A stretch of 64,000 nucleotides of DNA from an uncultured Bacilli bacterium (GTDB lineage Bacteria; Bacillota_I; Bacilli_A; RF39; UBA660): positions 17,120 to 81,119 of the forward strand of contig CANRPT010000002.1 in the NCBI GenBank assembly GCA_947632565.1. Reading direction: 5' to 3'. The notes beneath the pieces are model-generated. The model searched no databases. It had not been told where the DNA came from and saw only the letters and a list, made by a program, of their open reading frames with translations. Within the stretch, counting starts at the first letter, position 1. Each line of letters starts with the position of its first letter. This document shows, in pieces, positions 1 to 35,791 of this stretch. The position numbers were made by a program, and so were the translations under genes.

Positions 1-3000
1 AATATTAGTGCTAGGGATCAAGAATCTAAAGCCGAAGTATATTCAAACTATAAACAAAGTTTAATTAATGCTGCCAATAAGGAAAATATAAGCAAATCTG
101 TTTTGTAGGAAGCTAAGTAGAACATGATAGAATCAGGTTAGTATACTCCAGAACAGATATAGGATGACGATTATGTCTACGACTAGGTAATTGCAGATAG
201 AGTGAAGGTTAGTAATGTTAAATTCAATAAACTACGTATTAGTAACCTAAAAGGACTAAAGTCTCTATATATGGATAATATGGCTTTATCTGGAAGTGAT
301 ATTATATAGACTTTTCTAGAAGTTACTCCTCTACACAGTATGTTTAGAAGTGTAAGAGGACTTAAATTTGTTAGTAAATTAGTAGATACTAAAGCTGGAA
401 AAACTGTAGAGGCAATAGCCAACAAATATGGAACAGTAAAGGAACAATTAGCAGATAGAATTGACGATATAGTATCTTTCGGTATAGATAATGTTAATAA
501 ACTACCAAGATTAACAAGGAGAAAGCAAGTATTAGATATAGGGGGAAGAGTAGTAATAAGCAGCGCATTAGAAGGAGCAGAAGAAGGAACTCAATATATT
601 AAAGGACAGAGATACATAAATAGAGATTTTGATTCTGATCCAAACCTATTAAAAAGTTGGGCTAAAAACATAGGTACAGGCGCTAGATCTATTTTTGCGG
701 CTATAACTCCCTGGGATCCTGTATATTCTGATGACGAAGAGTTTTTAGAAAACTTTAAAGGAGGAGCACTACTTGGTGGAATAATGACTGGCGCTATTGG
801 TACTGCTACTTCTATTCAACCTGTTAATAGGCAGATATCAGGACAAAGATTTCTTGCAGGTTTATATGCAGATGGAATAGCTAGCAAGGATCAAGTACGT
901 AAAAATATTCAGTATAGTAAAAGTATACGTGAGGGAAAATGGGATGTACTTTATCAAGCCTTTGATGATTTAGAATAGGCTAACATAGACGGAATAGATT
1001 CTTCTGTAATACAAGAAGAAAAGAAAAGAGCTAATTAGTTTTATAATACATTCACTTCTAAGTAGACGTTACAGTAGGCTGCTAATATTGACATTGATCC
1101 TAGAACTGAAGATTATGATATATTTGTATCTTTAAAGCAGCATCATGACGAACAATACAAAGATGCTAGAGGGTTATATAGCGATTACGTATCTCAAGTA
1201 GATAATATATTATATAGTCCTGAAGTACAAGAACATATTCTTAACATAAATAAAGATTTAAGTATTGATCAACAGGCTAATATTAGAGCTCTAATAAAAA
1301 TATAGGCAGAATTAGAAGCATCTAAAAAATTAGTCAATGATGTATTTAATAGTTCTGATAAATTAGATGAAATTCAGAAATATACTGGAATTAAAGTAAA
1401 TAAATCTGACGTTAATTACTTTTCTAGAATGTTAAGTTAGCATATAAAAGATCTAGAAGAGCAATATAATGATCTTAGAAAATATTTACCAGATACTAAT
1501 ATAAAAGATGAATAGTTAGAAGTTCCTAAAGCACACTAGGATCTTAATGATGCATATGAAAAAACTATTCTAGCTAAATTAGATCTAGATAGAGCTTAGA
1601 ATGAATATTCTATCATGAACTCTACGGACGAAAAGTTGATTAAATCTAGAATAGATAGGTGGAAAGGAGTAGAAAATAGGGATGAAGAATTTGTTTAGAG
1701 GTTAAATGATTCTTACTCTGGAAAATAGGAAGAAAAAGTAATAGAAGAAAGTGAAGATATTAAAGCAGAACCTGTAGATAATACTACTGCTCCAGTAGAA
1801 GTTGAACCTATTAAACCAGAACAATAGAGAGAAACAGAACCTTAGTCTATCACTGATACTAGAAATGCTGCAGAGTGGATTCAGAGAAAATACTTCAAGT
1901 AGGAAAGAGATGAAAGAGGTAATAATAAGCAAGTATTAAATGCTGATAATATATATGGGCAAGCATATAATGAAGCTACAGAAGCGTTAAGAGAGGCATA
2001 TCATAAGATAAATCCAAACGCTAAGAAGTTTAATACTTTTTCTGCATCTATTATACTACAAGACCCTAAATTCTCTAAAGACGAAAGAGCTGATTTATGG
2101 GAGGATCTAATTAATACAAGAAATTAGTTAGAAGAAGAAGTATATTCTAACGGGAATTCATCTAGAGCAAAAGAACTAGTAAATTTAGTAAAAGAGAAGA
2201 TAGAAGCATTACAACTAGAAGAAGATATTATAACATCTTACAATGAATTTGTATCATCTAGTGAATAGTACATACATGAAAAAATGCTTCAAATCAAAGA
2301 TAAAGAACATAAGATAACAGAGCAACAAGATGCGTTGACTCCAGTTAATGTTCCAGAATCTCCAAAAGCAGAGCCTACTCAGAAATCTCAAGAAGAAGAA
2401 CCAGCTAAGATGGAAGACCTACCATCTCTTGGCTCTTTATTGGGAGGATTAATTGGTCAGGACGCTGCATAGGCCTTAGATACAGCTTATTCTGAACCAT
2501 AGACTCCAGAAGATACTTCTGCTTCTATTAGTGAGCCAGAACCAAAGACAAATAATGGTATTGCTAAAGATTTAACTTACGATCAATAGTTAGATCCATA
2601 TTCTCATGAACTCAATTATAGACTAAGTAATACTACCTAGGATGCAAATGGTAAGTGGACAGTAGTTACTTATAAAAAGTTCTAGGGTATGGAAGACTAT
2701 CTGAACAATGAAGACTTTTCTAAAGTAAGTGCTAATGATGACTTTCTGAAAGAGGTAGAAAATAGCGGGGTGTACTTTGAAGTTAAACCTTATACCAATC
2801 CTCAAGGATAGGTAGAAGATGCTATATATGCTATCTTTATTTATAAAGGAAAGAAGTATATTGCAGCAGTTAGAACTAGTAAGGGATTATATGCTAATAG
2901 ATCTGGTAGATTCAATAAATTACCATATAACCAACAGCAATATATAGTTAATAACTTGAATGATCTTAGAAATAAGATAACAGAACTATATAAACAAGTA

Positions 3001-6000
3001 TAGGCTAATCCTAATTTGCAAGTCGTTCCTACACAATTACGTAGAACTCCAGGTTCTATTGTTAATGAAAAAAATAGTGATAATAGCCCTAAAAATAGAC
3101 CATTAACTGAATCTAAGTGGTTAACGATAAAAGATCCATACGAAATAACTCCTGAAAATACTGAAGTAGGTATCACTACAGGTCCAGCAGGAAAAGGAAT
3201 AATAAGATTAAGAAATAGAGTATTGTCGTACAATGGTAGAGCTATGGGTAAACCTGCATGGATTATCAAAGCTACGAACTATGATGGTACAGTGTATGAT
3301 AAGCCAGTCATACTTAATTATAAGAAATTTTCTGATTCACCTAAAGTGGCTGATCTTATATTAGATTTAGTATTAAGTAATCAAAATCAATATACAGATG
3401 CAAATGGAGTACAAACACCTATTAATCCTAAAGAATTATTAAAATTCTTAGTTAATTTTGGCACACATACTATAGTTAATCCTAATAGTTAGATATACTC
3501 TCCAGAATAGATACAGCAAAGATTAACTAAACAATTCTTTGAAGATGAAAACGGAAACATTGTAATAGGGACCACTACTTATGTAGTAAATGACTTACTT
3601 ACTGATGAAACTATAAGAAATAAAGCTAAACAATATATAATGGATAATTTCCATTATAATATTGATGAAGACGGTCTTAATAAAAACTATTTAGGTGGTG
3701 ATTTGCAATCACAAGATAGAGACCCTCATTTTGAATAGTTATACTCTTACTTTAAAAATAGTGATGTAGAAAAGATAACTATTATACCTGGAGAATTAGA
3801 ATTTACTAGAAAAGATTTTGGACTAGAAGGTAATCCTAAAGGAATAAGTGTATTAGGTTGGTATATTAAACAAGGAATACTTTTGACTGATATAGCTGAT
3901 CAATTGCAAGATGCTAATATATATGTAGATGATGTTAGGCTTGTAGATAAGACTGTGAAACAAGTTCAATAGGAAGCCAACCAGAAATTGTAGGAATCTG
4001 TTAAAGATGATTTAAGAGAAAAGACTATAGAATATACTGATATTTCTGGTAATAAGGCTTCAATGAACTTAGCGGACATATACGCAATACTAGACGGTAA
4101 GAAGAGAAGAGGTCCTAATATGACAGTAGATGCTGACATTAACTGGAATATTGAGTATAACCAAGAAGATAAAATGGATGCACAACAAGCCAAAGAATGG
4201 ATATAGAAAACTCTTGGTATTACTCCAGATATAATAGATAATGTAATAGATGTTACTGAATCTGGAATGAATGTAGTAGGTAGAGTAACAGAAGATTCTA
4301 TCCTATTATACAATGAAGCTCCTAAAGGAACTGAATATCATGAAGCTTGGCATAGAGTATCTCAATTACTTATATCAGAAAAGAGTAGAAGAAAAATATA
4401 TGACAGATACAATCGTAAGAATAAATCTGCTTTGAAAGATTCACAACTAGATGAAATATTTGCAGAACAATTCAGAGAGTTTATGCTCAACGAATCTGGT
4501 AAATACGATTTCGATACTAAAAATTGGTTTAGAAGAATATTAGATTTTATAAAATTGTGGGCTAGAACTGGACAATATGCTATTGCGAAAATATATTCTA
4601 ACATTAATAGAGGAAAATATGCCGGTATAACTCCTAATCAGAGTAATATAGATAGATTTAGAAGTATTTATGGGGGAGAAGGGCCTAATTTTGAAATAAG
4701 TGGATATGAATTTAAAACTATAACTAAGTATAAACAATTTGACGATATTGTTAAGAGTCTTACTTATGCTTTCTTTAATGTAGCTTTTGCTGAAGGTAAA
4801 TATATAAATTATAGTGATCTCAATGAAAGCAAGCCTACGTTTGAAAGATTAAAACTAATAGTACAAGCTTAGGCAAATAAATTCCCATCTCCTACTATGA
4901 CAGAGGTAGTAGATACTTTTGATACTGTATTTGCACCGGTTATATCTACTAGGTTAAAACAATTAGGTATTAGAACTATAGATAGAAATTCTGAAGATCT
5001 AAGTGTAATAGAAGAAGTATAGGAAGGAATAGATGTAGCACAACATACTGTAGAAGGTATGAATATATCTATAAAAGATAATGCTCCAGCTGAAGTTAAA
5101 TTCTTCTTTCAAACAATACCGATGATGGAAAGAGGAAAAGACGGAAATTATCAAACTAAGATAGACGATGTTACACATTTTGCCAGTTTTGTAGATTCTA
5201 ATTAGGCTTGGAATAACGTATTAAAAGATTTATCTGGATGTCGTACTATAACTAATATATTCGATAAAGTAAACATACTATCATAGAATGACTCATTCTA
5301 TATGTCGTTATTGTTAAAACTAGGTAATGAGATATAGAAATCTAATTCAGATGATATAAGAATAGCAACTGACGCTGAAGCCTTACTCACCAAACTTGAA
5401 ACTGTAATAACTTCAGATATAAATAACTTTATTACTGCTAAGATAAGTAAAGATAAAGATACAGGATTCACTAAAGCATCTTTAGTAGACAATACTGTGG
5501 ATATTAAAGCTATAAAGTATCCTAAGGTATGGTCATAGGCACTATTTACTAATTCTGGATTATTCAAATACGATAAAGATGGTAAAATAGTGGCTGACCC
5601 AGATGCTAAAAAGTATTTAAAATTAGTAATAGATAATCTAACTACTATTAGAACTGCTTTTATGAATCGTAAAGGAATACTAAAGGTAGGAGATAGAGAT
5701 GTTGATTTACATATACCTATGAATCAAGAATGGCTAAAAGATAGAATAGTTTCTTATCTTCAGGCAGTAGGTATAGGAATAGATAAACCTACGATTAATA
5801 GAATGTTATTATCAGGGGATTATGGTAATCCTAGAGCAGATTCTTATACTCTATTAAATTCATTTGTTGTAAATATTAATAACTTTGGAGGTTTAGATAG
5901 GATCACGGAAGTATTAAATACTATAAATAATGCTATTAAATTCGATAATACATTATCAGATATAATAATTAGTGGTAAAACTGTATCTCCTAAGTCTATC

Positions 6001-9000
6001 TGGAGTAATGTAGGCTACGTGAAAACTTTGGCTAATTACTACGCTTATGTACATTCTACAGATAAAGGTTTAAGTAGTTATGGTCCCGATGGTAATACGT
6101 ATTACATGGTATCTTAGAATAACTTTGTAAAAGATAGAGTTCAGGAAATGATTACAGATCCGTAGGTACTATAGGATTTACGTTCTGTTAATTATAATCA
6201 ACACTCTATTGTACTGAATGCTATATCATAGGGTAATAAAAACATCTAGGTAGAAACTCTTATTAATTTCAAAGATGAAACTTCTTATGACGCTGGTAGA
6301 GATTACTTTGGTATTACAGATAGAGAAGACTACATAGCTAAAATGACTGCTGTGTTGAATGATAGAATAATATTTCCTACAGTAGCCGATAAAAAAACCT
6401 ATCATTTCTTACGTGGAATTAAATTACCACATGAACGCATAAATTTTACAGTTACTTCATAGGGTACTTACGCACAATATGGCGAATAGTCATTAGATAT
6501 TCTAATAGGTTACTGTTAGGATGAGTTAAGTCAAATAGAATTATGTCTTAGACAAATTGATGATGATCCAGCTCATTATGATAAGGAAAATAATATACAT
6601 TATAATGAAGATGGAACCATAAATAATGATTGGCTTGAACCGAATAGAAGAATAAAAAATTTTCATACTCCTAATACATACAAATATACAGATAAAGAAG
6701 GCAAAAAACATACAGTTAAATTAGAAGGAAATGGAGCTAGATTTTTATTCTTAACCGGTGTATATGCAAATGGGAAATTCATTAACTTCAATGATCCTAA
6801 AAAATCTGCTAAAGAATGTTTACAATTAGCAAAAGATTATTTCTTCAACGCACCTAAGGATGCTCAAAAAATGTTCTTAAGCGATTTAATAAATCGTAGA
6901 GTAAAAGAAGAAATAGAGACAGCTAAAAATTTAGGACTTATTACTGGTAATGATAATAATAGTATATGGAGTTTACGCAACTCATTGTTAGATGACAATG
7001 AGTTAATAGAACGTACAAAAGCATATACTAACATAGATCCTGATAATGCTGAAGGATATGCTATATTTGATATGATTGCTGACTATACTATTAATAGTAT
7101 AATATCTATAACTGAAATAGAAAAATTATTCAGTGGATCACCTGCATATTACAAAGTAAAATATGATGAAAATGGCATTATTGATTTATCGGTTGATAAA
7201 ATCAAACGTTTGGGCGCGTTAACTTCTACAGGATTAAACAACAGACTTGATTTTAATAATGATCCTATCAGATAGGAATACGTGGTAGCAGAATTAAAAG
7301 ATCATGAAATTCAAGACAAGTAGTATTATGAATTTGAGCGTCTATTTACTAGAGGTAATATAAAGGAAACCATACAAGAATTAGAAGGCGAAGAAGCGTG
7401 GAATAAAGTAAAACATTTAAGTATATAGGAGATAGAGAAAATATATCCTGATGCGGTTAAAGTTGCTAAACAAGCAGCAAAAGTAGAAGTAGCTGGTTAT
7501 AAGGAAGGAATAAATGTAGCTGATGCTGCTGTATATATTAGTCCTACTATGACTAGAGATCTTCTTAGAATGAGAGGAGAATGGTCTACAGAAGTAAAAG
7601 AAGCTTTTGATGTACTTACTAATGATAATACTGCCGATACTTGGGAATCTGATCCAGAATTATACGCTAAAGCTAATAAAGTTATATTAAATGCTATGAA
7701 ATACATGGCATTCGGTACTAGATTTAATGAGATAGATGGATTAGGTATACCGTACTTTAATAAGATGGCTTTATTTCCATTATTTAAATCTATTGCTACA
7801 GGTGATACTAAGGCTATGTACGATCGTATGATGGATCCAGAAAATCCTATAGATATGATTATGTTTGATTCTGCTGTAAAAGCAGGTTCTAGATCTCCTA
7901 TGAAAGCTTACAGAGAAGCCAAAGATAGTGAAATAGAACTTAAAGATGGTCAAACGGTATTGTCTGCTAGTGTAACAGATCAACTTATCAGTGGAGAAGG
8001 AAATACGTTAAATGATTTTAATAATCTGGTAACTTATAAGTAGAAATTTAAATATTTACGTCAACAATTAGCTACTAATCCTCATACGCACGAAGAACAA
8101 ATGGCAGGTACACAATTTATGAAAGTAAACTTGTCTAATATTCGTATGAATGATATGTACGGTAAGGAGGGAAATTAGGTGACTGGTAGAGATATTAAGA
8201 ATACAGTAATGGAATCTCTTAATAAGTTATCTGACATGGGTAAGCAATAGCTGGCATCAGAACTATTTACCAAAGATGGCAAAGTAAATATAACCAAATT
8301 AGGTACTATGCTTTATCAAGATGCTAAAGAATCTGATGCTAACGATAATGTATTAACAGGTCTACGTACTAAGGATGATGCTTTTGTAATACCTTTATCC
8401 GCATTATCTGACAATAAGTGGATAGAAAGTAGATTTATAGCTATGATCAATAAAATAATTATTGATGTGATGATGCCAGGAGGAGCATTTATTCAAAGAT
8501 CTGCTTTCGGTATAGAAGCTACTTCTACTAAAGTTATTACAACTAATATGATTAATGATGGTAGAGCCTTAAAGATGAACAACGAAGAAGGTTCTATGGA
8601 TTCTGTAGTAAGTATAAATTTATTTAAACATATTATACCTAACTACGAAAAAATGACATTTAGACAAGCAAGACGATGGTTAATTGATAAGAAGATAATT
8701 GGACCAGAATCTACAGCAAATGCAATAGGTTATCGTATTCCTACTCAATCTATTGCGTCTATATCTGCTCTTAGATTTGTAGACGTGTTCCCAGAAATAA
8801 TGGGTGATACTATTATGTTGCCAGAAGGATTTACTAAACTTACTGGTTCTGACTTTGATATTGATAAGCTATACGTAGCCAGATTTGCTTATAATAAATT
8901 AGGTGGAAAAATTACTAAAGGAACTGCATTAAAAGTTGATGAAGTCATTGATTCATATAAGAATGAAATATTAGACGCTTATATGAAAGTACTTCTTACT

Positions 9001-12000
9001 TAGGATAATTTCAATTCTTTAAAACTGTCTATTGATAATGCTACTGAAAATACTAAGGAAGTACTTAAAGACATAGAAAGTAATAGAGAAGTTCATTATG
9101 TTCAACCTTTTGAAGTGTATACTCCTACTTATCAAGAAGCTAGAAAAGCCGAATATACTGGCGGTAAAGCAGGTATTGGACCATTTGCATTGAACAATGC
9201 ACATCACATACTTACTCAACTTACTGGCTTAAAGATGGTCGATAATGAATTTACTAGAACGTTAGACCTAATAGATCTAGGAAGAATATATGATTATCCT
9301 ACAGCAGGAACTCCTAAAGGAAGACGTATTCTTGACTGGTTATCTGCTATGATTAATGGTTTTGTTGATATTGCTAAAGACCCATACATTGTAAGATTGA
9401 ATGTTAATTCTTGGACTTATAATATGGTAAACTTCTTATTACGTACTGGTAAAGGTAAATGGACATTCTATTTTGTAGGCCAACCTATATTTAAAGAAAT
9501 AGCAGAAGAAGTTGCTAAAACAAAAGGTAAGTATGGTGTAGATAGAACTAAAACTCCCTCTCAACTAGAGAAAGAAGCTATTAAAAAAGTGCTAGATAAA
9601 TACGATCCTACTGGAGGACACAGATCTAGATATTAGTATATAAATACTAAAACAAATTTAATGGCAGAAGAGTATAAAGATCTTTTTAAAACAGAAATAG
9701 TAGATGGTAAAGAGACCTCTTATACTAGAGAGCTACTATTACATCCTAATGACTTTGAATTTAATAGAGAGTAGATAAGGATGTATTATGCTTGGTTAGC
9801 TCTTAAACCATACGCTGATGGTCTAGCAGATCTTGTAAAATATTCTAAAGTAGATACTAAAAAAACTGGTAAATCTTTCGCTGAACAGCAGATATATTAT
9901 AATGGCATGAAAGATTTAACCAATAGTATGGTTTTTGAAGAAGGAGAGATCCAAAGATTTTATGATGAAACATTCATAGGAAGAAAGACTGAAAATAGTA
10001 TACCATTTGGAGCTAGTATATTCTCTAATCTATTATTCAGAAATACTGACACTTTCATAAAACAATATAACTCTGTATTATCCTTACTTGGAAGAAAGAA
10101 TAACGCTAATTCTAAGTTATTAAACCCTATCATATCTGGTATGGAATCTTAGATAAAAACAGAATTCTTTAATCAATTTGTGAAAGATAATGATATTGAT
10201 GTAGAAGGAATGTTTAGAGGAAATAATACTATAGCAAAACGTCTTAACAAATTTAAGACTATGATATTGAGAGGAGATGAACGTTATAAATACTTATTGA
10301 ATCCCAATGGTAGTATAAATAATGATTTCTTAGAATACTTAATACCAAATATAGATAATGAGAGTATAGACTTTGTAGATACATCAGAATTACTTAGTGC
10401 AGACCAAGCTCAAGCTAACAATCTTATAAATTACTGGAGAGAACTATTAGATGATCCTCTTCCAGAGGTTAAAAGATTGGCTAGGGATTTAGCAGTTTAT
10501 GCATTCTACACATCTGGAGATAATTTTACTATGAATTCGTTCTTCTAGTATCTACCAAATAGTTATAGACAAGAAATAGGTTATACTGATTTCGTACAAA
10601 ATAAATTAGAGCAGCTTATTAATGAATCTCAATTAGCTTATAAAGATAAGGCAGATTTATTCTTGAATAACTGGACAAATGATCTATTGGTTAAACCTGT
10701 AGAAATGGAAGGAGGAAAAAATAGAATGCCATTTATACAAGCCAAGTTAAACGAATAGGCTACTCCTAATATAATTGTTGGAAAAAGAGTAGGATCAGAA
10801 TATTCAGATATAAAACCAATAAATTGGGTTAAAGTATCTGTAGTAGATGCATTAGGTAATCCTGTAGTAATATCGTATCCTATGTTCCCACCATATATCA
10901 AAATGAGAGATGGTAAAGGTTTTGACACTAAGAATTGGCATGTATATACTCTAATAGGTTTTACTGATCAAGCAGAAGTAGATAAAAGTACTGGGAAATT
11001 TACAGGAAAAATGCAATATACTCCTATATATGGACTTGTTAGTAAAAAAGGATACAAACATAGGGGTCACACTATTGTTGAATATGGTAGAGAAACTCAA
11101 TTTGATTTCAATAAAGAAAATGAATGGGATTACAGAGAAGCTCTGAATAATCCTTTAGCACTAGCTGACATGGCTTCTGAATTCGATAAAACAGAATGGA
11201 ATAAAATAAGTAATTCTATACATTTAATAACATCTCTTCCTAGCTATTCTGACATGAATTATGCTATAGCTGAACAAGATAGAGTTTATATGGATGATTC
11301 TTCTACTTTAGAAGAAGATGAAGTAACTGGAGAAGTATTAGAAGAAAAAGAAGAACCAAACGGAATAGAACAGAATGGTGGTAGATTTAGTGATGTTGTA
11401 ACTACAGTTAGAGATACGCTTAAAGATGAGACATTCAATAACACTGAATCTACTAATAATGATCCAATAAATTTTGCTTCTAAAGAAGAAAGTATAAACA
11501 CAATACAGTCTAATAAAACTATATTAAGTAATAAAGAATTAATTAAATTAAGACCATATGCTGGAAATAGTCCTAGAATAGCAGTAGCGTCAGAGCATAC
11601 GGATCCTGTATTCTTTTCTAAAAAAATCATAGAGATACTAGATGGTAAACAAAGTGTACAAGATAAGTTTAGAAATACTTCCTATACAGGTAATGATTTT
11701 GCAGCACTATATCTTATCACTAAACACGACGGTCTTCCGTTGAAGAATCTACTTGAATATAAAATACCTAAATTGATTCATTTCAGTATTACTGGTTTAG
11801 GAGGTACTAAGTGGGAACCAGGTGTGATGCAGTACAATGATTTACTAGACAGAATATAGGAATTTATAAAACAAGGTTTGGATCCAGAAATGGTTACTGT
11901 ACGTATAGATCCTATAATTCCAGGAGTAACGCTAACTTCTGATGTAGAAAATATAGTTCGTAGAGCATCTGAAATGGGTATCAAAAATATTAGGTTCTCT

Positions 12001-14247
12001 GTTATGGATCAATATTCTACTACTAAGAAATTTATGGAAGAACTAGGTTACGATTACTCAAAGTATTACGATTGTAAAAGTTTGCATGCTAGACCTGAAA
12101 TATTGTAGAGTATTGAAAATAAAATGCTAGAACTTAAAAATAAATACAAAGTAAATATAAGTACATGCGCTGAGCCGTTTAATATCGAAGGTATCAGTAA
12201 AGAAGCTTGTTTATCTGTAGCTGCTATCAACAACATGTTAGGAACAAACATACCAGAAACATCTACTGGAAAACAAAGAGCCCTATGCTCATGCTATGGT
12301 GGTAAAACAGACTTACTAAGATATGATAATAAATGCGCATCATCTTGTATATATTGTTATGCTCATCACAACAACAATAAGAATCTTAACTACTATAATG
12401 AAGATGGCACTTTGAAAGATAATCCTTTCACTAGGACTACAGCTTAGACTAGTGTAAATGAGAATAAAACTTAGTATATTAACCATTCAGGTGGTGCGAT
12501 TGGTAGTGATACCATGTGGGATGAAATTGGTAAACAATATGGAGTAGTATCTAATCATTATTATCACGGTTCTAAGACTCCTAAAGGTAATATAGAAATA
12601 ACAGAAGAACAATTTGAAAGAGGTAAACAACGTGTACTCAAGGCTAATGAAACGTTACATAGAAGACCTGATAAGTACATGAACTTATTAGCTCGTAATT
12701 GGATGTAGGTAGAAAACTCTGATGCTATTTTTGCTATCGGTCATTTAAAAAATGGTGTAGTAGATGGTGGTACTGGTTGGGCAGTGCAAATGGCAATAGA
12801 TTATAATAAACCAGTATTTGTATTTGATCAAGAACGTAACAAATGGTATTCTAACATCAACGGTACTTGGTCCGAAACTAGTATTCCTAAACTTACTTCT
12901 AATTTTGCTGGTATAGGTACCAGAGAGATAAATCAAAACGGAATACAGGCTATCAGAAACGTATATGAAAATACATTCAATAATACTTATGAGAAAGTGT
13001 TGACTAAAGAGAATACTAAGAAATTAAACTTCGATGAAGTAGCTTCTAAAGTATTTGATTTGGTCAATAGATTAGGTATTTAGACAGTACTAGTAGACCC
13101 TAGTCAACTGGTTTAGAGAACTACTGCGGCACAGTATGATTCTGATAATAATCGCATATTACTACGAAACGATTATAAGTCTTATCTTGATAAGACTGGT
13201 ACGACCTTAAATCGTTTACTACTTCACGAATACATACATGTTATTACTTCCTATGCCATAGATAATGCAGATGAGATGCCTGCTGATGTTCAGACTGCAG
13301 TAAAAACAATAGAAGCTGCTTATAAGACATTATTGGAAAAAGAGAAAGGTAACTATATCGAATTTATGGGGAGTCTAATTTCAAACAGTGATGACTATTA
13401 CGGGCTTACATCTAAGTATGAGATGATTGCTGAATTGGCGAATCCTAATTTTAGGAAGATACTAAACAAACACAATTTACTAGATGGGTTAATTTCAAAT
13501 ATTAAAGACCTTATATTTAAGCTATTCGATAAATTTGGTATATCACATAATTCTACACTTGAAGATAGTTTAATTGCTAGTCTTAATACACTAGTTGATA
13601 ACTTTGATTCAACTGTCTACAACAATTGGAATAAAACCAGAACTGCACAAAGATGGTTCCGTGATAATATTCAACGAGTATCACTAAATGAATTTATTGG
13701 TAATAAGGTGATGGATCAAGTAAATAAATAGTTAGAAAACAAACCTTACGAAGAAGTTGCTGAAATTACCATAAATATCCCTATAAGTATAGCCGAGAAT
13801 ATATATAATTAGCTCGGTGGCTAGAACGCAAAGAATAAGCCGTTTGTATTATCATTTGATGGCGGATCCGTCGTGTTTGCAAGATTAACTGGTTTAAAGC
13901 CAAGTGATAAAAAGATGCAGGGAAAATATAGTGAACTTGACACGTATGATATGACGATAGAAACTCATCCAGAAATAATTCCAATCGAGGAATATGAGAA
14001 AGCTGGGAATCAGTATAGACCTCTTGCAGATGTAGGTTCTACTTAGGCTTTAACTGGTATTGATTTGGTATCGCTATACGACCAAGGAAATCGTAGAGTA
14101 TCTGAAGTATTAGATTAGCTAAGCGATCTAACACAAGAAGAGAGACAAACCTACTTGAATGAGTTTGCACAATACATGCGAGATAATAATGTCAACACTC
14201 AAGACAAATTAGAAGAAGCACTACGCAAGTTTATTTGTAACTTATAA
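1..14247 (+). CDS. Giant multidomain virion-associated protein, 5'-partial (at least 4,748 codons in window), with RNA-polymerase-like DPBB motif; TAG read as sense
   Basis: All 17 ORF-track fragments from 340 to 13731 lie in one frame (pos mod 3 = 1) and each ends in TAG. I read most inter-fragment gaps codon by codon and met only TAG, never TAA or TGA; the first TAA is 14245-14247. Motifs: RIPTQSIASISA...GSDFDIDK (DFDID 8851-8865), HEAWH 4339-4353, HEYIH 13225-13239. Confidence 0.8.
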
Positions 14248-14258
14248 TTCCAAATATT

Positions 14259-17200
14259 ATGTATAAATGCCCAAATAAAAATCTTCCAGAATGGAAGGAA
14301 CTTGAAAGAGTGGTACCAGAGGTTGCATACACTATCTGGGATATGAACAATGGTCATGGTATAGATAAGGCTCCGAATGGGGAGCCTTCTATCCTATTCT
14401 AGAATCTATTAGATTATTTTGATGGAAACAGAGATGAAGCTATAAGAGCAAAAGTAAAAATCTTTTCTATTCCATTTAAAAATTGGTTTGGTGATTGGAT
14501 TAACGATCCAAACGAATCTTCTAAAATAGTAGATAAAAATGGTGAGCCTTTAATTGTGTATCATTATAGTGACGCACAATTAACAGAATTTTCAACAGAA
14601 TATGACAATTATTTCTTTAAGTTTAAAGGAGGGACAAAATAGGCAATATTCTTTACTGCCAATCCAAGTCCTAAGAAAGGAACAGTATTAGATAGAAAAT
14701 ATAGAATACCTGTGTTCTTAAATGCTAGAAGCGTAATCGAGAAAACAGGTACTAAAGATGAAATTAGATAGTAGGGAGAAGATTTTGTATCTACTGTAAA
14801 TAGATCTGCTAAAGAAGCAGATGCTGCTATATTTCATAAATTTGATGATAATCAAGAGGTAAATCAAGAAATATATGTTGTTCACAAACCGAACAATATT
14901 AAATCTGTATAGGACAGTGGATATTTTACAGTAGATAATAATATTTACAGCCCTGTTGAATCCACTGTAGATTATTATTCTACAGAATTTAAAACATTTA
15001 GTGAAGACGAAATTAGAGTTTTAGAAGAAGTATCCAGTTTATATACAAAAATACAGAAGGGATTAAAAGATAGACTGAATGCTATCAAAAGATATTCTAG
15101 CAAAAATCCCAAAGTATGGAGAGATCTGCAAAACTTAATATAGAAATTATCTACATCAGAAACTGAACAAGGTATAATCCAATTTCTAGAACACGTTAGA
15201 GACTCCATAAACGATAGTAAGAATTTCTTAAGTAAGCCTATAGAAGAAATTAATGCTAAGTAGATACGACAACTATCTAATGATTATGTAGGGTTCTATA
15301 AACCTCTAATAGATAATATTCAATATATTGTTGATACTACAGATATATTTAAAGGAATAGATAACTATGATGATGTAATTAATCTAGTAGCAGAAATGTC
15401 CTAGTCTATAACTACTGTGAACAATAAATTTATAAATGTTCTCAAAAGTAAGGGGTATCAATATTTACGTCAATACCTTTCACAACAAGGCATGCCTGAT
15501 AGTTTCATTTAGGGTACTATTAATTGGCTAGATGATCCCAAACACGATTCAAGTATATTTATGAATTGGTTTGGAATGGCTACTAATAGTGATAATGCTG
15601 TTCAGCAAGCTATTGCTAAGATGTTGAATGATGTGAAGAACGCTACGGATAGACAAACTTTAGAAGTAGGCATTAGATTAGTAAAAGCACTGAATAAAGC
15701 AAAGGAAAAATATGGGAATGACGTATAGAAATTGCTTTATGAGAGAGACGATGATGGTAGTTATACTGGATATAGAGTAACTAGAATAAATTAGGGTAAG
15801 TATAATCGTACAAAGAAGCAATTCTTAGATAAACTTGCAAAACAATTAGGAATAACTAAAGATTCTAATGGTTAGTACGAATTACCACTAAATTAGGATA
15901 TATAGAAAAAGTGGTTTGATAGTATAAATAAATGGTACAATGATCACGCTGATAGAAAATATGTATCAGAATACTATACACTTAGAAATAAGATGTTGTC
16001 ATAGAAAACTAGAGATGCTCAATAGGAGATATAGAATTATATAGATAACATTACCAATCCTATTACTATAGATGGCATAGAATATGATAATCTATTAAGT
16101 GCATCCGAATATAATCAACTATAGGAATTGCGTAAACAAAAAAAGATGTTAGCAAATCCATATAATTTGGATGGAAGTGAAAAGACAGGTGATGACGCCC
16201 TAATAGCCAAAGAACTTATAGCTTTTAATGAAGAAGTATCAAAACATATCAAATATGATACAGATATATAGAAATATCAGGCAGATAGATCTAAAGTAGC
16301 TAAAAGATATGGCGATAATTCAGAATAGTTAAAATTGTGGGAAGAGCGTAATACTGTTGAAAGATATAATTAGGCTTTCTACGATAGAATAGATAGTTTA
16401 GACAAAACTCCATAGTCAGATACCTATGAACGTCTAAGAACTAGAAGAAGAAATTTATTATCTTTGTATAAAGATCCTAATACAGGTAAAATAAACACAG
16501 ATGCTATATCTGATGCTGAAAAGAGAGATCTGTTACAGCTAGATCAAGATATAGCTTCTTCATATTCTCCGAGTTAGGATACAGAAAGAAAAGGTCCTCG
16601 ATTGTCTGATTTTGCAGAAATAGCTACTACAGAGCAATATCATATAGATATGGAAAAAGCTAGAAACAATGGTACATTAGCATACAATGATTGGTTCAAC
16701 AGAAGTCACTATGAAGATGTTAGAGGATTTATGAGACCGGCATCATTTTATACTGAACTTAGACCATTACCACAATTTATGGATCAATATAAAGAAAGGG
16801 TTCCTTCTATAAAATACTCATCAATATCGCCCAGTTCTGATTGGTATAATTCTAACTGGGATCCAAATGGTCCGTCTATTTAGCCTAATAAAAAGTTGTA
16901 TGATAATAGTAAAGCTTATAATGCTGTATTGAATAAACCAGAAGTAAAACAACTATATGATGAGATAGAAGCTATTATGGACGAAGCTAACAAGTATGTA
17001 TCTTTTATGTAGTTTGCTAATGATCATAGAATGCCTCAAATACCTGCTAGATTTATGCAATCTTTGAGCCGTAAAGATGGTGTACTAGATAAATTAGGAT
17101 ATGTTTTTGAAGATTTTGCTACTACTAAAGATGATGACTTAGACTTCGTGAACGAATTTTCTACTATGCCTAATGGAGATCCAATTAAAGTAATACCTAC

Positions 17201-18818
17201 TAGATTTATAAAGATGTTAGATGATCCTAATATAATATCTACTGATGCTGTTGCAGCTGTAGTTTAGTATTATAATATGGCTGCTAATTATCGTAATATG
17301 TCAGAAAAATAGGATGACGTAGAAATGATGTTAAATCTACTGAAATAGGTATCTATTCGCACTAAAAAAGAACTTAAAGGCGCAGGATCTACAAATGTAT
17401 ATAAGTAGTCTTAGTTATTAGTAGATAGATTAATGTATGGAAGGAATAAATCTCCTATATTAATGAATGCATTTGGTAAAGAATTAAATGTAGGTAAAAT
17501 GTTAGACATAGTTAGAGGGTTTGTTACAAAAGTAAATCTATCTGGTAATCTATGGTCTATTGGAACCGGATTTTTTACTGATGTAACATATATCACTTTA
17601 GAGGCTAAAATGGGAAGATTTTTTGACTTAGAAGATCTTAGGTATGCTTAGACAGAATTTTCTAGAGAATTACCAAACATGTTATCTAACATAGGTAATC
17701 CAGATCCTAAAGGTAAATTACCATATTTATTAGCTCTTAATCAAGTAGTAAAAGATAATTAGGAACTATTTGACAGATTAGATGAAAGCTAGGTATTAAG
17801 ATCTATAAATTAGAATTTTTGGTTTGCAGGATATACTCAAGCAGACTATACTGTAAAAAGTCATACTCTTATAAGTATCTATCATAATTATCGTTTCGTT
17901 AAAGGAGATGGTTTTTTATCTAAATCATAGTATATAGGTAAATATTATCCTAACGATAGAAAAAGAGGAGAAGTAAATTTCAAATAGTTAGGTGTTACTT
18001 TATATGATGCATATATAGTACAGAATAATGGAGACGTTACAGTAGATACTAAGTATAAGGACTATATTACTGAAAAATTATTAAACGACGTAAAAAATAG
18101 AATACAAATAATAAGTAAGAGAATAGACGGTACTATACGTGAAGTAGATAAAGCGTAGGTTCATGCTAATTCTATAGCATCCTATACAGTCATGCATCGT
18201 AATTTTATGGTATCTGCTTTACACGATAGATTCAAAAGAAGGTAGTTTAATTTAGATTTAGGAGTAATAGAAGAAGGGTATTATAGAGTTACAGGTAGAT
18301 TTCTACAAAATGTTATAGGAAATAGACATTTCGCTTTAACTTAGTTATTAGCCGATTATGATAACATGAAGGAGTATGAGCAATATGCTGTTCGTAGAAC
18401 TTTAAATGAATTAATGTTAATAGCAGGATCTACTACAGTTGCTGTAATACTAGCTAGTATAGTAGACGGAGATGATGATTATGATACTTGGTTGACTTAG
18501 TCCGTAACTTATCTTGCAATGAGGTCTGCTTTTGAATTTCGAACTATGTATAATCCATTTGAATTAATGTCTCTAATTAAATCTCCTACAGCAGCTTTCA
18601 ATTGGTTTGATAATGCATCTAGTTTTATTAACTTAGTTAATCCATTTGCGTATACAGGTAATAAAACGCCATTTACTATAATTGATAGAGGAGTATACAA
18701 AGGCATGCCTGTAATACTAAGAAACATTATTAAAGTAACTCCATTTAAAAGTATGTTTGAAGCTCAAGATCCAAAATCGAAACGTAATTATTTACAAAAT
18801 CAATTGATGAACTTCTAA
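14259..18818 (+). CDS. Large virion/ejected-cargo-like protein (1,519 codons), TAG read as sense; hydrophobic segment near C-terminus
   Basis: ATG at 14259. ORF-track fragments 16602, 17031, 17433 and 18519 share this frame (pos mod 3 = 0). I counted 23 in-frame TAG between 14259 and 16600 and no TAA or TGA before TAA 18816-18818. Confidence 0.7.
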
Positions 18819-18864
18819 GTTTCTATTCAAATTATCAATTCGTTGAAATTACTGCAAAAAAGAA

Positions 18865-18888
18865 AAGCCTACTAGAAATAGTAGGCTT
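18865..18888. terminator. Bidirectional hairpin terminator between convergent operons
   Basis: AAGCCTACTA-gaaa-TAGTAGGCTT is a perfect 10-bp stem with an A-run upstream and T-rich sequence downstream. It sits between the + operon end (18818) and the - gene end (18887). Confidence 0.6.
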
Positions 18889-19411
18889 ATTTGTTATCTT
18901 TGTCTATTAGATCTAGATAACTATAATAGTCTTCTTCTGGTAATTCAGCCTCTATAGTTTCACCATTCCTATAATGAGGATAAAATAAACGTTTAGATAG
19001 TTCTGGAACTGGCACGTTAGTCCAGAATCTATTTATATCAAGCGTAGCTTCTAAACTAAATGTTTTACCATAATTTTTAAGACTATTAATATCTTTTTTG
19101 TACTTAGGATTACTGAAACAATAAATTGTATATGGCTTATTGTTTATAGTAATATATTTAATATTATAAATAGTATCAAGATTTTTAAGCTTACAGTATC
19201 TATCTAGAGATTCTCTAGTATTTACTGAACTATCGTATACAAGAAAGACCTTATCTTCTAAATAAGGTCTATTTTTGTCACTTGTATATGCATTTATAAA
19301 TCCACTTTCTACAGTTAAATCTCTCCAAGTTAGATTATCATCTAATAAAGGAACTATATATATACTTACATCATTTAAGGCTTTCAGTTCCATTTCCTTC
19401 GTAATATTCAC
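18887..19411 (-). CDS. Hypothetical protein
   Basis: Intact standard-code ORF (174 aa, TAA stop), packed against its neighbour. No motif recognised. Confidence 0.6.
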   Translation of the reverse strand: MNITKEMELKALNDVSIYIVPLLDDNLTWRDLTVESGFINAYTSDKNRPYLEDKVFLVYDSSVNTRESLDRYCKLKNLDTIYNIKYITINNKPYTIYCFSNPKYKKDINSLKNYGKTFSLEATLDINRFWTNVPVPELSKRLFYPHYRNGETIEAELPEEDYYSYLDLIDKDNK

Positions 19412-20360
19412 GAGTATGGTCCCAATTTCCTGTCTGATAATGGTATGAAATTTCTGTTAAAGTATCTGCTATTAGGTCTTTACGGTCTAATAACTCTTTT
19501 TCGTTTAACATATTAAATACTCTTACTTCATTATTACCATTGCTTTGAATTGCAATAATGTATGCTTCTAAATCAAATTCCTCTATATTATATCCTAGAT
19601 CAGACATATACCATGTAAGAGCTAAAATATAGAATGCAATTTGTCTATAGTAGTCATATTCTTCTACAGAATGCTTAAAATTATAAACATCTGCTGTAGT
19701 TTTTAAGTCTATAAGGATTATCTTCTTATTAACAAAATCAATTTTAACTCTGTCTAATAAGGACTTACAAGATACTCCTTGTTTTGTTGCTTCCCAGTTT
19801 ATATGAAACTCATTATTGCAGTCCCAACCAGGATTATTTGTAAGTAAATCTTTTGCTTTTTTGTGATTATTAATATTCTCTTCTATTCGTTTAAGCATAT
19901 TTAAATCAGCAAATGATATTACTGTAAATGTTTGATTTTTATCTAAAAATTCAATATACTCTGCAAACTTGAGTTGTAACTCTTTTGCTTTCTTTAACAT
20001 TGCATCTTTAGACATGTTATTACCAGAGTATGCAGATTTATATGCATCTAGTAATTTATCTTCTTCTAATAATTCTGTAGAATGAAAATAACGTTCACAA
20101 AATGCAATCTGCTGTGCTGTTTTAGGCTTCTCATAGTCAATAATCATATAATTATGCCAGAATTCATCTGGCTGAAGTAAGTACATGTGTATCATAGTAC
20201 CTTTTTCAAGATACTTTCCACTTATACCCTCTTCTTTACCGTCAAGCATATCCTTGAGGTAACGTGGTCCTTTTTTCAAGAACCACCCTATTGCACTATT
20301 GGAGATTCTTGATGAATCAGAGTAATATTCACAATCTATTATCATTCGTAATATCTCCAT
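19371..20360 (-). CDS. Putative PD-(D/E)XK (RecB/Cas4-like) nuclease
   Basis: 329-aa ORF with an IILIDLKTT core resembling the D...(D/E)xK motif. Located in the replication/recombination neighbourhood. Motif memory only. Confidence 0.5.
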   Translation of the reverse strand: MEILRMIIDCEYYSDSSRISNSAIGWFLKKGPRYLKDMLDGKEEGISGKYLEKGTMIHMYLLQPDEFWHNYMIIDYEKPKTAQQIAFCERYFHSTELLEEDKLLDAYKSAYSGNNMSKDAMLKKAKELQLKFAEYIEFLDKNQTFTVISFADLNMLKRIEENINNHKKAKDLLTNNPGWDCNNEFHINWEATKQGVSCKSLLDRVKIDFVNKKIILIDLKTTADVYNFKHSVEEYDYYRQIAFYILALTWYMSDLGYNIEEFDLEAYIIAIQSNGNNEVRVFNMLNEKELLDRKDLIADTLTEISYHYQTGNWDHTREYYEGNGTESLK

Positions 20361-20887
20361 TTAAAACCACAACAATGATTACGTTCTCCTTTACAACATT
20401 TTATTATATTAGAACTTTTAATATTATATTCGTTAGCAGCTTCTTTAATACTATTCCACCGCCTTAATTCATTCATGTCTAAATCATACTGAATTATTTT
20501 TCTAATAATATTATTCTTACTTCTTCTTAAATTAATACTTTTATAAGTATTATTATACTTATAACTGCACCATTCTAAGTTTTCTATATTATTATTAGTT
20601 TTATTTTCATCTTTATGATTTACGCATTGTAAATTATTAGGGTTATCTAAAAAGTGTTCTGCTACTAATCTATGAATTAATAATGTTTTATGTGTATTAT
20701 CTTTTGATAATACAACATATTCATAACCAGCTGTTGTAGTATTTGTTTTACGTATTTTTTCTCTGATCGTTTGAAAAGTATTCTTAACTTTAGAAGGTAC
20801 TTTTCTTTCAAGAGATTTTACTTTACCAGTATTGCTTATCTGATAACTATTTTCAAAACCTTTTATATCTTTCCAAATTTCCGTCAT
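20342..20887 (-). mobile_element. HNH homing endonuclease (NUMOD4-like N-terminus, HNH_3 core)
   Basis: EIWKDIKGFENSYQISNTGKVKS at the N-terminus, then HRLVAEHF...NHKDENKTNNNIENLEW. It is wedged between, and overlaps, flanking genes. Confidence 0.8.
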
Positions 20888-29819: not shown

Positions 29820-29839
29820 AATATAATAATGTTAGTTTG

Positions 29840-29956
29840 TTCCCTATTTCGGATTTGAACCGACGACCTCCCCTAACATATACGAATATATAGTAATACG
29901 AATATTACATCAATATATACGAATTACAGGATGCTCTACCACTGAGCTACTAGGGA
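29840..29956 (-). tRNA. tRNA-like gene with a 51-nt insertion inside the anticodon stem
   Basis: Minus strand: TCCCTAG-TA-GCTC-AGTGGTA-GAGC-A-TCCTG-[51 nt]-TAGGG-...-GTCGG-TTCAAAT-CCGAA-ATAGGGA-A. The insert (29876-29926) holds the perfect hairpin GTAATA-TTCG-TATTAC (29893-29908) and three ATTCGTAT repeats. Confidence 0.5.
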
Positions 29957-31504: not shown

Positions 31505-32083
31505 TCAACCTTTTCTGATTTTAACAATTTTGTTGTTTAGCTTTCCGATGATCGGTAATATCCGTCCACCACCGAGATCTACACCTACGCCAATCTCAAC
31601 ATCATCGTCAAGACTGTACTCGTGTTTATACTGTTCACGTTGTTCTTCTGCATATTTTTTTGCATTTTCCTGATTGATATATTTAGAATGTAGTTCCCCG
31701 TCTGAACAATTCCTCATACTATCAAACAAAATATCTACTACGCAGTCGAAGTCACGTTCTTTTACAGCTTTATCAAGAATACTTTTAGTAATTCCGTCAA
31801 AAGCAACATCATTTCTGGATCCATTAGATCCAGTAATTGCGTCTGCTATACGAATTGATGCATCTATAATACTTACCGATTCATAAGAATTACAGCATCT
31901 TTGCCACCAAATTGGCCCACGCCCATAATAAAAATAGACGGTTCCATTCTCTTTAATTTGAACCTTTTTAGGAGTTTCAATTACAGCTCCGTTCCGAATC
32001 TGAACTTTGCTGAGAATTGTTGGCTCTGAGCAAATAAGTATTCGCAGAAGCTCTACTCTTATAGGAGAAATTCTGCTATTCAT
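31505..32083 (-). CDS. Hypothetical protein
   Basis: Intact 192-aa ORF. Composition looks G+C-richer than the replication module (by eye). Confidence 0.6.
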   Translation of the reverse strand: MNSRISPIRVELLRILICSEPTILSKVQIRNGAVIETPKKVQIKENGTVYFYYGRGPIWWQRCCNSYESVSIIDASIRIADAITGSNGSRNDVAFDGITKSILDKAVKERDFDCVVDILFDSMRNCSDGELHSKYINQENAKKYAEEQREQYKHEYSLDDDVEIGVGVDLGGGRILPIIGKLNNKIVKIRKG

Positions 32084-32090
32084 AACTTAC

Positions 32091-32738
32091 TTATCCCTGG
32101 GCTTGTTCGATAGTTACGTTTACTTCTACTTGATCTTCGTTAGTGATCCCACACTGCCGTAAGTACTCTACTTGAGCACGATCCTGTTGGTCCATAATGT
32201 TCCGGACAGTTTCTGCAAGTTGCATGTTTTTACGGGCTTGTTCCTCATAGAAATTCAGAATAGATGAGTTATGCATCTTTAAGCATGTATTCAACTGCGG
32301 AAGTTCAGAAGGACCAAAGAAAATAGGTCTTGTAGGATTTGTTGGATCGTTCGGCTTGGTTAATGTTGCAATACAGGCCATTACACTTTCTCGGGTTGCT
32401 TTCTGGAAATTCGGTTCAGCAAGATCAAATACCAGTGATGGATCCTGAGACTTCGGATTCAGAATTACCTTTGGATGACCGTCAAAGTCCTTTTCACAAA
32501 GTTCAATACCTGTAATATCAATAGGCTTGACTATAAAAATCCGGACATCCTTCCGTAATGTGTTCTTGTCATTCTGAACGTCTTCTTTCCACTTCAGATC
32601 CGGGTTGTGCGATACAATCGTATAGATCTGGCTACTAAAGTATTCTCCATACTTTTTGCAAACTTGCCGATAACGAGCCATAATAGAAGCTAACTCCGTG
32701 TTAGGAGTAACCATTTGTATTTTACTATTTTGTTCCAT
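32091..32738 (-). CDS. Hypothetical protein
   Basis: Intact 215-aa ORF. Confidence 0.6.
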   Translation of the reverse strand: MEQNSKIQMVTPNTELASIMARYRQVCKKYGEYFSSQIYTIVSHNPDLKWKEDVQNDKNTLRKDVRIFIVKPIDITGIELCEKDFDGHPKVILNPKSQDPSLVFDLAEPNFQKATRESVMACIATLTKPNDPTNPTRPIFFGPSELPQLNTCLKMHNSSILNFYEEQARKNMQLAETVRNIMDQQDRAQVEYLRQCGITNEDQVEVNVTIEQAQG

Positions 32739-35724: not shown

Positions 35725-35791
35725 TTTGATGATGATTTAGTGAATAACTTTCTAAAGGTAATAATTTGTTTCCAAACTTTAAGGATCCAGC

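Follow-up and report, generated by a model that had tools for sequence, protein, structure and literature searches.

The crAss-like phages are the most abundant phages of the human gut. In phi14:2, gp66 is a virion RNA polymerase (RNAP) that is packaged, enters the cell and transcribes the early genes. Its crystal structure shows it in a self-inhibited state, and the adjacent gene products, gp65 and gp67, likewise belong to the virion (Drobysheva et al.). The PhicrAss001 proteins gp47, gp49 and gp50 have been detected in virions by mass spectrometry at about six copies each, and their ejection has been modelled as occurring by partial unfolding (PMC10172136). Giant multidomain proteins of the transcription block and TAG recoding have been described (Yutin et al. 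2021, PMC7886860), and fusion to a 'single huge polyprotein, likely cleaved', with a zincin-like domain, has been stated by Drobysheva et al. Here we analyse a 64,000-nucleotide stretch of contig CANRPT010000002.1 (hereafter the window), whose first 14,247 positions very probably belong to one late gene of a Buchavirus-like crassvirus in which TAG encodes glutamine. Its product of about 5,019 amino acids (aa) would be a virion-packaged 'polyvalent' protein, made up of a gp47/gp65-like part, a two-barrel RNAP, a variable string of enzyme domains and a conserved tail.

The blocks of phi14:2 (gp65/gp66/gp67) and PhicrAss001 (gp47/gp50/gp49) resemble that of the window in having a homologous zincin, a two-barrel RNAP with a DFDxD motif and a third protein, all encoded at the end of the structural operon. 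In those phages the three are separate proteins of ~150-277 kDa, whereas in the window the first two form one chain to which enzyme domains have been added. The core of this finding is already known: the fused giant RNAP, TAG recoding and a proposed cleavage have all appeared in the literature, and RefSeq contains near-identical genes. What is particular to this instance is its own set of extra C-terminal enzyme domains.

One giant late gene with in-frame TAG codons

1-14247, + strand: 3' part of the giant gene, 4,748 codons plus TAA (homology, codon-position bias and a relative from IMG/VR)

Positions 5-11359 of the window share 91-92% DNA identity with the RefSeq crassviruses cr113_1 and cr109_1 (Buchavirus, Loutivirinae, Suoliviridae, Crassvirales), both from human faeces, and synteny with cr109_1 extends over the remainder of the window. 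A first-pass annotation, made from the sequence without database searches, had pointed to a crAss-like phage; the DNA identity bears this out, and by this comparison the window can be assigned to a Buchavirus-like crassvirus of the Suoliviridae. The cr109_1 and cr113_1 homologues (KNV50_gp53, YP_010112503.1, and KNV54_gp38, YP_010112838.1; both 4,328 aa) are named 'DprA-like DNA recombination-mediator protein' in RefSeq. Where they can be aligned, these proteins are 93% identical to that of the window, with which they also share gene order, TAG recoding, and a backbone of gp47-like part, zincin, RNAP, SLOG domain and tail.

Frame 1 of the + strand holds 4,748 sense codons in positions 1-14244, 73 of them TAG and none TAA or TGA, and its first stop other than TAG is the TAA at 14245-14247. 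Since the other two + frames contain 260 and 628 TAA/TGA codons over 1-14247, a chance open frame of 4,748 codons is excluded. Third-position and synonymous changes predominate in each 250-codon bin of the comparison with cr109_1, so that purifying selection on this register extends over the entire frame. At base 1 the frame is already open and hence 5'-incomplete in the window, so that the initial description of a single frame of at least 4,748 codons lacking its 5' end stands on the codon and stop count. Residue 1 of the window aligns to residue 272 of the 4,328-aa cr109_1 protein, which places the ATG 271 codons upstream of the window and sets the product at ~5,019 aa; by this homology, the window would hold the 3' part (~95%) of one late gene. 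The upstream sequence had been called for to find the start. An exact-protein look-up of the first TAG-free ORF of the window gave no match, and an IMG/VR relative (94.6% identity, from a 50-mer scan) continues the frame through the 444 upstream bases available there, or 148 open codons.

In cr109_1 and cr113_1 the homologous region is annotated as one coding sequence (CDS) of 12,987 nt, which in cr109_1 starts with ATG and contains 70 in-frame TAG. The most decisive point for a single gene comes from the alignment with cr118_1 (Besingivirus), a phage with the standard code, in which a colinear open reading frame (ORF) of 4,946 aa starts with ATG, contains no TAG and runs uninterrupted across the zincin/RNAP junction. 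Further annotated homologues in the Suoliviridae are found in cr4_1 (4,491 aa), cr53_1 (4,645 aa), cr7_1 (5,443 aa) and cr272_1 (6,386 aa), and the lengths annotated in RefSeq span 4,328-6,386 aa. The TAG codons of the window are absent from the domain junctions, the nearest lying at aa 1402 and 1624 and at aa 3586 and 3953. Coincidence of TAG positions with gene boundaries in homologues, named at the outset as an outcome that would speak against a single product, was thus looked for, with no TAG at the junctions and read-through in cr118_1. Window positions 1-14247 are one gene.

Opposite the TAG codons of the window, cr109_1 has TAG at 42 positions, CAA or CAG at 18 and some other codon at 5; compared in reverse, 22 codons are changed and 19 of these specify Gln. 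In fragments of homologues predicted under the standard code, Q lies opposite 43 of 74 window TAG positions. Of the Gln-type codons, TAG accounts for 34% in the giant ORF, for 51% in the gene after it and for 0% in seven early genes. When TAG is taken as sense, long ORFs cover 75% of the window instead of 49%. Long ORFs that contain TAG are found only in two blocks on the + strand (1-18818 and 53167-64000), and in the minus-strand block at 18.9-47 kb most genes have no in-frame TAG and a few have one or two. These comparisons show that TAG is read as glutamine in the late genes of this phage, and the exchange of TAG and Gln codons with relatives confirms the initial reading of TAG as sense.

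A transfer RNA (tRNA) with the suppressor anticodon CTA is encoded by cr109_1, and two tRNA-like genes are present in the window:

52430-52533, + strand: tRNA-like gene (Rfam tRNA, 31.8 bits), syntenic to the tRNA(CTA) suppressor of cr109_1
29840-29956, - strand: second tRNA-like gene (Rfam tRNA, 33.8 bits), with a ~44-nt insertion in the anticodon region

The gene at 52430-52533 has good acceptor, D and T arms and a 32-nt insertion by which the anticodon arm becomes a long hairpin with CUA in the loop; its anticodon is not assignable. With this aberrant structure, the gene is at most a candidate for TAG decoding. No stretch of the window matches the 3' half of the tRNA of cr109_1 with up to three mismatches allowed. 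The Val and Ile identities proposed for the two genes by ARAGORN with introns allowed are forced and implausible. The second gene adjoins a 653-aa ORF at 27870-29831.

Fused polymerase and C-terminal cassettes

The features of the giant protein, all on the + strand, are as follows, with residues numbered from the first codon of the window:

760-807 (aa 254-269), + strand: Gly-rich hydrophobic segment GGALLGGIMTGAIGTA (hydropathy scan, motif coordinates)
898-2580 (aa ~300-860), + strand: charged helical region, non-repetitive and conserved only in the Buchavirus-like clade
2428-2457, + strand: second Gly-rich hydrophobic segment, LGSLLGGLIG (hydropathy scan, motif coordinates)
4156-4680 (aa 1386-1560), + strand: zincin-type domain 1, with HEAWH at 4339-4353 and DEIFAEQF at 4450-4473
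4800-11292 (aa ~1600-3764), + strand: virion RNAP module by homology to 6VR4, N-terminal boundary approximate (~+/-150 nt)
11293-11358 (aa 3765-3786), + strand: acidic linker DDSSTLEEDEVTGEVLEEKEEP, separating the RNAP from the cassettes
11359-12459 (aa 3787-4153), + strand: in-frame insertion relative to cr109_1, carrying DUF1848 (gap structure of the alignment)
11590-12363 (aa 3864-4121), + strand: DUF1848 (PF08902; Pfam E = 2e-23)
12466-12993 (aa 4156-4331), + strand: SLOG-superfamily Rossmannoid domain, with GGAIGSD at 12490-12510 and GGTGWA at 12766-12783
12994-14049 (aa 4332-4683), + strand: second in-frame insertion relative to cr109_1, an HExxH domain (HExxH-2) with a helical C-terminal half
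14050-14247, + strand: conserved 65-aa C-terminal tail (ending EEALRKFICNL) plus TAA, kept whatever cassettes precede it

A phmmer search of the PDB returned 6VR4 (phi14:2 gp66) as the sole hit (E = 1.9e-28), aligning aa 1560-3177 with gp66 residues 101-1681. The catalytic motif DFDID (aa 2951-2955, nt 8851-8865) lies within the best-aligned stretch, and a DFDVD motif stands at the aligned position in Kehishuvirus. On this homology the module is a crAss-like virion RNAP of the phi14:2 gp66 type, which would have two double-psi beta-barrels in one polypeptide, and the RNAP catalytic segment that had been read from the letters at 8728-8871, which contains DFDID, is upheld; the motif coordinates of the first-pass annotation (HEAWH, the RNAP segment and HEYIH) were correct on re-check. 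In the PhicrAss001-like Kehishuvirus, where sequence identity to the window block is only 23-29%, a 2,310-aa gp47-like protein aligns to window aa 1400-1558 and a 2,412-aa DFDVD (gp50-like) protein to aa 2504-3545, colinear on one frame, and a 1,349-aa gp49-like protein aligns to the downstream gene (aa 828-1500 of the latter). Because the gp47-like gene of Kehishuvirus lies on the strand opposite to the gp50-like and gp49-like genes, the window lineage carries a real gene fusion, and the junction can be placed by alignment near aa 1600. Relative to the Steigviridae, the gp47/gp65-like protein and the RNAP are thus encoded as one chain, in agreement with the original proposal that usually separate genes had been joined, with the caveat that the third protein of the block (gp49/gp67-like) remains a separate gene at 14259-18818.

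Zincin-type domain 1 is conserved throughout Crassvirales (tblastn), with a nearly invariant HEAxH followed by a conserved ExxAExF. It aligns to residues 2105-2267 of the Kehishuvirus 2,310-aa protein, which has its HExxH at 2157, and is by this alignment the equivalent of the C-terminal end of the PhicrAss001 gp47/phi14:2 gp65-like protein. Its matches in the PDB were all sub-threshold (E ~0.2) and all to PPEP-1/Zmp1, a gluzincin, with both motifs covered; a database of protein fragments called with the standard code gave 13 matches. The two Gly-rich segments are possibly membrane-active parts of the gp47-like portion. The stretch at about 1000-2500 had been described as coiled-coil-like repeats, a description that did not hold: searches for tandem DNA repeats and for internal protein repeats were both negative there, and the stretch is instead a charged helical region, with 41-46% E/K/Q/D/R, poor in Gly and Pro and favouring helix. 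A crude heptad screen of it gave a single short candidate segment, aa 719-754.

Downstream of the RNAP, DNA similarity to cr109_1 and cr113_1 stops at 11359, after the acidic linker. DUF1848 scores 84 bits against a Pfam cut-off of 30.5 and covers model positions 5-262 of 262. Its Cys cluster, CSC...CX3CX2C at 12286-12357 (aa 4096-4119), in which CX3CX2C reads CASSCIYC (12334-12357), has the form of a radical-SAM-type motif, and the insertion also gives a weak match to NCBIfam rSAM_PA0069. The SLOG domain matches PHROG 768 'DprA-like' (E = 1.6e-12) and gives sub-threshold Pfam matches to cpYpsA, DprA, LDcluster4 and Nuc_deoxyrib_tr in all three aligned members (best E = 0.0022), in which GGAIGSD and GGTGWA are invariant. 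Both domains had been proposed from motifs, a Cys cluster and a GGAxGxD pattern respectively; DUF1848 is now placed above the curated Pfam cut-off, and the SLOG-like assignment gains support from GGAIGSD, PHROG 768 and the sub-threshold matches to the SLOG clan. In PHROGs, six of the seven chunks of the giant protein were without a match, only the SLOG/DUF1848 chunk scoring. The combined DUF1848 and SLOG sequence had no match in the PDB, and the SLOG profile found nothing significant there, only weak matches to nucleoside 2-deoxyribosyltransferases; matches to 'Pizza' designer-protein repeats were spurious.

The SLOG domain is 64% identical to that of cr109_1 and, over ~175 aa, 54% identical to a sequence inserted in the virion RNAP of Klebsiella phage Pylas, which is of the N4 type. 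This insert occupies ~aa 965-1168 of the 3,819-aa polymerase (NC_049444.1, 11950-12660 within CDS 9109-20568) and is flanked by linkers rich in Ser, Thr, Pro and Glu. The two carriers of these SLOG domains are a two-barrel RNAP of a Bacteroidota phage and the T7-like virion RNAP of a Klebsiella N4-like phage. Weaker SLOG copies were seen in an Alteromonas phage gene annotated as RNA polymerase and in many jumbo phages. In cr272_1 (Buhlduvirus), a homologous DUF1848 is followed directly by SLOG, at 36.7% identity.

The second HExxH domain carries HEYIH at 13225-13239 and YEMIAELANP at 13417-13446. When the TAG-free core of this domain (aa 4373-4576) served as query in an exhaustive HMMER search, 119 remote homologues were recovered, the majority as parts of proteins 2,000-6,000 aa long, and HExxH is intact in 106 of 108 homologue segments; the standard-code fragment database gave 2 close matches. 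Two remote homologues contain LPD38 or LPD23 'large polyvalent protein' domains. In a 17-sequence alignment the signature HExIH...YG...ExxAExxNP is invariant except for the final Pro, which is nearly so, and H37, E38, H41, E102 and E106 (alignment numbering) are among the invariant residues. Both HExxH motifs of the giant protein, noted earlier as zincin motifs, therefore lie in conserved zincin-type domains according to the homologue alignments. The two domains are taken as different families because hhalign gave a probability of 8% between their profiles and 6% for profile against single sequence. The HExxH-2 profile matches the tetrameric ejection protein gp48 of PhiM1 (8VB2; E = 1e-8) at residues 377-509, as well as the PDB chains 9SFN_G 'internal virion protein' and 23SG_S 'gp10', with E values ranging from 1e-8 to 2.6e-7 and with HExxH and YG...E[FM] aligned. 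Weak SprT-like matches occur in 13 of 17 members (best E = 2.5e-5), and further weak matches are to lethal factor (0.011) and thermolysin (0.58). The domain thus appears homologous to the enzymatic domain of podovirus ejection proteins. PhiM1 gp48 (the T7 gp16 analogue), 9SFN_G and 23SG_S are capsid-stored, ejected proteins that share only this domain with the window protein, in which their hub and helical parts were not detected; as the match is limited to gp48 residues 377-509, it is read as a shared domain and not as membership of the podovirus ejection-protein family. The matched region of gp48 has been read as a peptidoglycan-degrading, endolysin/exotransglycosidase-like domain of the ejectosome (PMC11440229).

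The C-terminal tail is common to cr109_1 and to the relatives P0116, P0117 and L017-L019, with identity of 75-98%; a value of ~73% was also obtained against cr109_1. A Cys near the C-terminus recurs in the giant proteins (window 14224-14244) and in the gp47-like and gp50-like proteins of Kehishuvirus, within the last 3-12 residues (RKFICNL, KKHCKN, MKHCKGE, AIRCS, DKICGA and others), which makes at most a weak pattern.

The gene that follows also varies among relatives:

14259-18818, + strand: next gene, gp49/gp67-like, 1,519 aa with 40 in-frame TAG and a C-terminal hydrophobic helix (Kehishuvirus alignment)
~14532-14915, + strand: ART-PolyVal-like insertion of ~140 aa in the next gene, absent from cr109_1 gp52

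Judging by the alignments, three in-frame insertions are particular to this phage in comparison with cr109_1: DUF1848 (aa 3787-4153), HExxH-2 (aa 4332-4683) and the ART-like insertion in the next gene. Among the cassettes cr109_1 has SLOG only. In L017, whose RNAP end is 95% identical to that of the window, the linker leads directly to HExxH-2, and DUF1848, SLOG and the ART-like insert are absent. Domains ahead of HExxH-2 in L018 and L019 are unrecognised (no Pfam match at E < 0.01), and L018 has a different insert of ~320 aa at the ART-like insertion site of its next gene; in P0117 another domain is joined to the second half of the HExxH-2 module. The cr272_1 and cr118_1 proteins have the fused backbone of the window and different tails: that of cr118_1 ends in a RecD-like superfamily 1 (SF1) helicase (AAA_30, E = 3e-26; UvrD_C_2) and that of cr272_1 in NADAR, DUF7831, DUF1848 and SLOG. 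The HExxH-2 module was not seen in either by tblastn. Cassettes thus vary on nearly identical backbones. Those seen comprise DUF1848, SLOG, the HExxH ejection-protein domain, ART-like, NADAR, the RecD-like helicase and unrecognised others. We tentatively suggest, as a possibility with the odds against it, that a hot-spot of cassette exchange spans the 3' terminus of the giant RNAP gene and the 5' terminus of the gene after it, that pre-made effectors ride in on the ejected polymerase, and that SLOG has moved between two unrelated kinds of virion RNAP.

Proposed packaging and ejection, and possible processing

The giant gene sits in a late, TAG-recoded operon that is syntenic with the virion-protein block, and packaging, ejection and the enzymatic roles are inferred only, by analogy with phi14:2 and PhicrAss001. 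The giant protein would be made late, only once TAG can be decoded, and packed in the capsid; at infection it would be extruded, partly unfolded, through the tail. The RNAP part would then transcribe the standard-code early genes on the opposite strand. While ejection is under way, the HExxH domains would probably have the cell envelope or the cargo itself as their target, and SLOG, DUF1848 and the ART-like domain of the next protein may arrive as pre-made host-manipulating or counter-defence enzymes. Such a host-directed role is in line with published work in which SLOG and NADAR domains of viruses are predicted to counteract immune signals derived from nicotinamide adenine dinucleotide (NAD+) and ADP-ribose (ADPr) (PMC9503650).

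Injected multidomain proteins, the N4 virion RNAP among them, have been described as polyvalent proteins (Iyer et al. 2017, PMC5512222). Like the window protein, these are single huge polypeptides that combine a polymerase, a zincin-type metallopeptidase and other effectors and are thought to enter with the DNA; in the window, a single frame encodes the RNAP together with two zincin-type domains, DUF1848 and SLOG. The N4-type virion RNAPs among them carry MPTase, ART and lysozyme domains and have a T7-like core, in contrast to the crAss two-barrel core of the window. The window protein has no Pfam match to MPTase-PolyVal or LPD, neither HExxH domain reaching the MPTase-PolyVal model, and the text of PMC5512222 mentions neither DUF1848 nor SLOG.

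Several points weigh against this explanation of the giant gene and its product as a whole. The packaging, ejection and integrity of the protein are extrapolated from the Steigviridae and phi14:2, as no proteomic or expression data for Suoliviridae were found, and a radical-SAM-type domain, which needs an iron-sulphur (Fe-S) cluster, fits poorly with unfolding through a narrow tail. AlphaFold2 models of both TAG-free HExxH stretches were unusable, with predicted local distance difference test (pLDDT) values of 48 and 43 from shallow alignments. The SLOG membership rests on the PHROG match and sub-threshold Pfam matches, and the ART-PolyVal match (PF18760, E = 2.4e-6) reaches 28.8 bits, under the cut-off of 31.2. 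The 5' end of the gene is placed by way of relatives, and ARAGORN found no canonical suppressor tRNA in the window, ~35 kb of the genome lying outside it.

The chain might instead be a true polyprotein, from which its own zincins or some other protease release a gp47-like piece, the RNAP and free effectors, either at assembly or after ejection. Two HExxH domains with conserved metal-ligand motifs, the position of zincin-1 directly ahead of the RNAP module and the acidic linker between RNAP and cassettes would suit such processing, and cleavage of fusions of this kind, possibly as proteolytic activation of the self-inhibited RNAP, has been proposed by Drobysheva et al. However, the Steigviridae, whose gp47-like protein is unfused, have zincin-1 at its end in equally conserved form, which argues against cleavage of a fusion as its ancestral job; and homologues of HExxH-2 occur in ejection proteins such as PhiM1 gp48, with a proposed role in peptidoglycan degradation. 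On these comparisons, autoprocessing as a dedicated role of zincin-1 is weakened, though possible. We regard a processed polyprotein as a minority possibility, one that adds to a packaged polyvalent protein as the best explanation and does not exclude it. A still less probable alternative, in our view an unlikely one, is that the accessory domains are not injected effectors and act in the producing cell or in the particle, tethered to the RNAP merely for co-expression; DUF1848 and SLOG might, for example, act on phage DNA or nucleotides before packaging, and the HExxH domains in assembly or maturation. Activity of an Fe-S enzyme of radical-SAM type is more readily imagined in the producing cytoplasm than after unfolding and ejection, and ejection of the C-terminal part is presumed. 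Yet SLOG, at 54% identity, is inserted between flexible linkers in the unrelated N4-type polymerase of Pylas, where the trait common to the carriers is that they are ejected, the turnover of cassettes on 95%-identical backbones resembles arms-race variation, and the partner domains in relatives (NADAR, RecD-like helicase, ART-like) typically have early or host-directed functions.

That the frame is not one gene, because some TAGs are real stops or gene boundaries or because the two extra domains are assembly chimeras, is highly improbable and already close to refuted. It would account for the lack of a canonical suppressor tRNA within the window, and standard-code gene callers do cut the region into 300-870-aa pieces; against it stand the colinear cr118_1 protein without any TAG, the TAG-free domain junctions and the exchange of TAG and Gln codons between relatives. 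As for chimeras, the inserted domains hold in-frame TAGs at the same density as the remainder, the HExxH-2 module and tail were found again in independent contigs at 79-90% identity, and the DUF1848-SLOG pair is also present in cr272_1. A single late gene for a probably packaged, multidomain RNAP protein is retained as the preferred reading.

Other features of the window and implications

Outside the giant gene and its neighbour, the following features were recorded:

40546-40643, - strand: RAGATH-20 RNA, above the Rfam gathering score
41292-41448, - strand: RAGATH-9 RNA, above the Rfam gathering score
43114-43240, - strand: Hatchet ribozyme, above the Rfam gathering score
45038-45266, - strand: RAGATH-7 RNA, above the Rfam gathering score
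53167-56253, + strand: large terminase ORF, 1,028 aa with 15 in-frame TAG and a ~1-kb in-frame insertion relative to cr109_1

The small structured RNAs are clustered in the early region at 40546-45266 on the minus strand; an ARAGORN 'tmRNA*' call beside this cluster, at 39966-40351, is probably spurious. The terminase insertion at ~54309-55325 reads as an intein with LAGLIDADG motifs (C...LGLFMGDGFF...LFDSDGY...VHNC). G+C content is 0.36-0.37 at 32001-38000 and 40001-42000, compared with ~0.30 elsewhere in the window.

Calling with the standard code breaks the giant gene into 300-870-aa pieces or small CDSs, as seen in protein-database entries and in Bohxovirus PV686213.1, and the intact RefSeq homologues (cr109_1, cr118_1, cr52_1 and others) are named by one accessory domain and never as RNA polymerase: 'DprA-like...', 'exonuclease V', 'DNA helicase' or 'nuclear pore complex protein-like'. 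Such naming hides the identity of the virion RNAP, and standard-code calling yields dozens of fragments. The cassette hot-spot, the pairing of DUF1848 with SLOG and the SLOG domain common to an N4-like virion RNAP are worth following. There is essentially no literature on DUF1848; its fixed place beside SLOG, on a polymerase that is probably ejected, suggests concrete hypotheses on the two domains, to which the occurrence of SLOG in both crassvirus and N4-like virion RNAPs adds. The variable C-terminal cassettes form a compact and testable catalogue of candidate injected effectors. If the hot-spot proposal is true, SLOG and the paired radical-SAM-like DUF1848 would be counter-defence enzymes of the first minute of infection, acting for instance against immune signals derived from NAD+ and ADPr.

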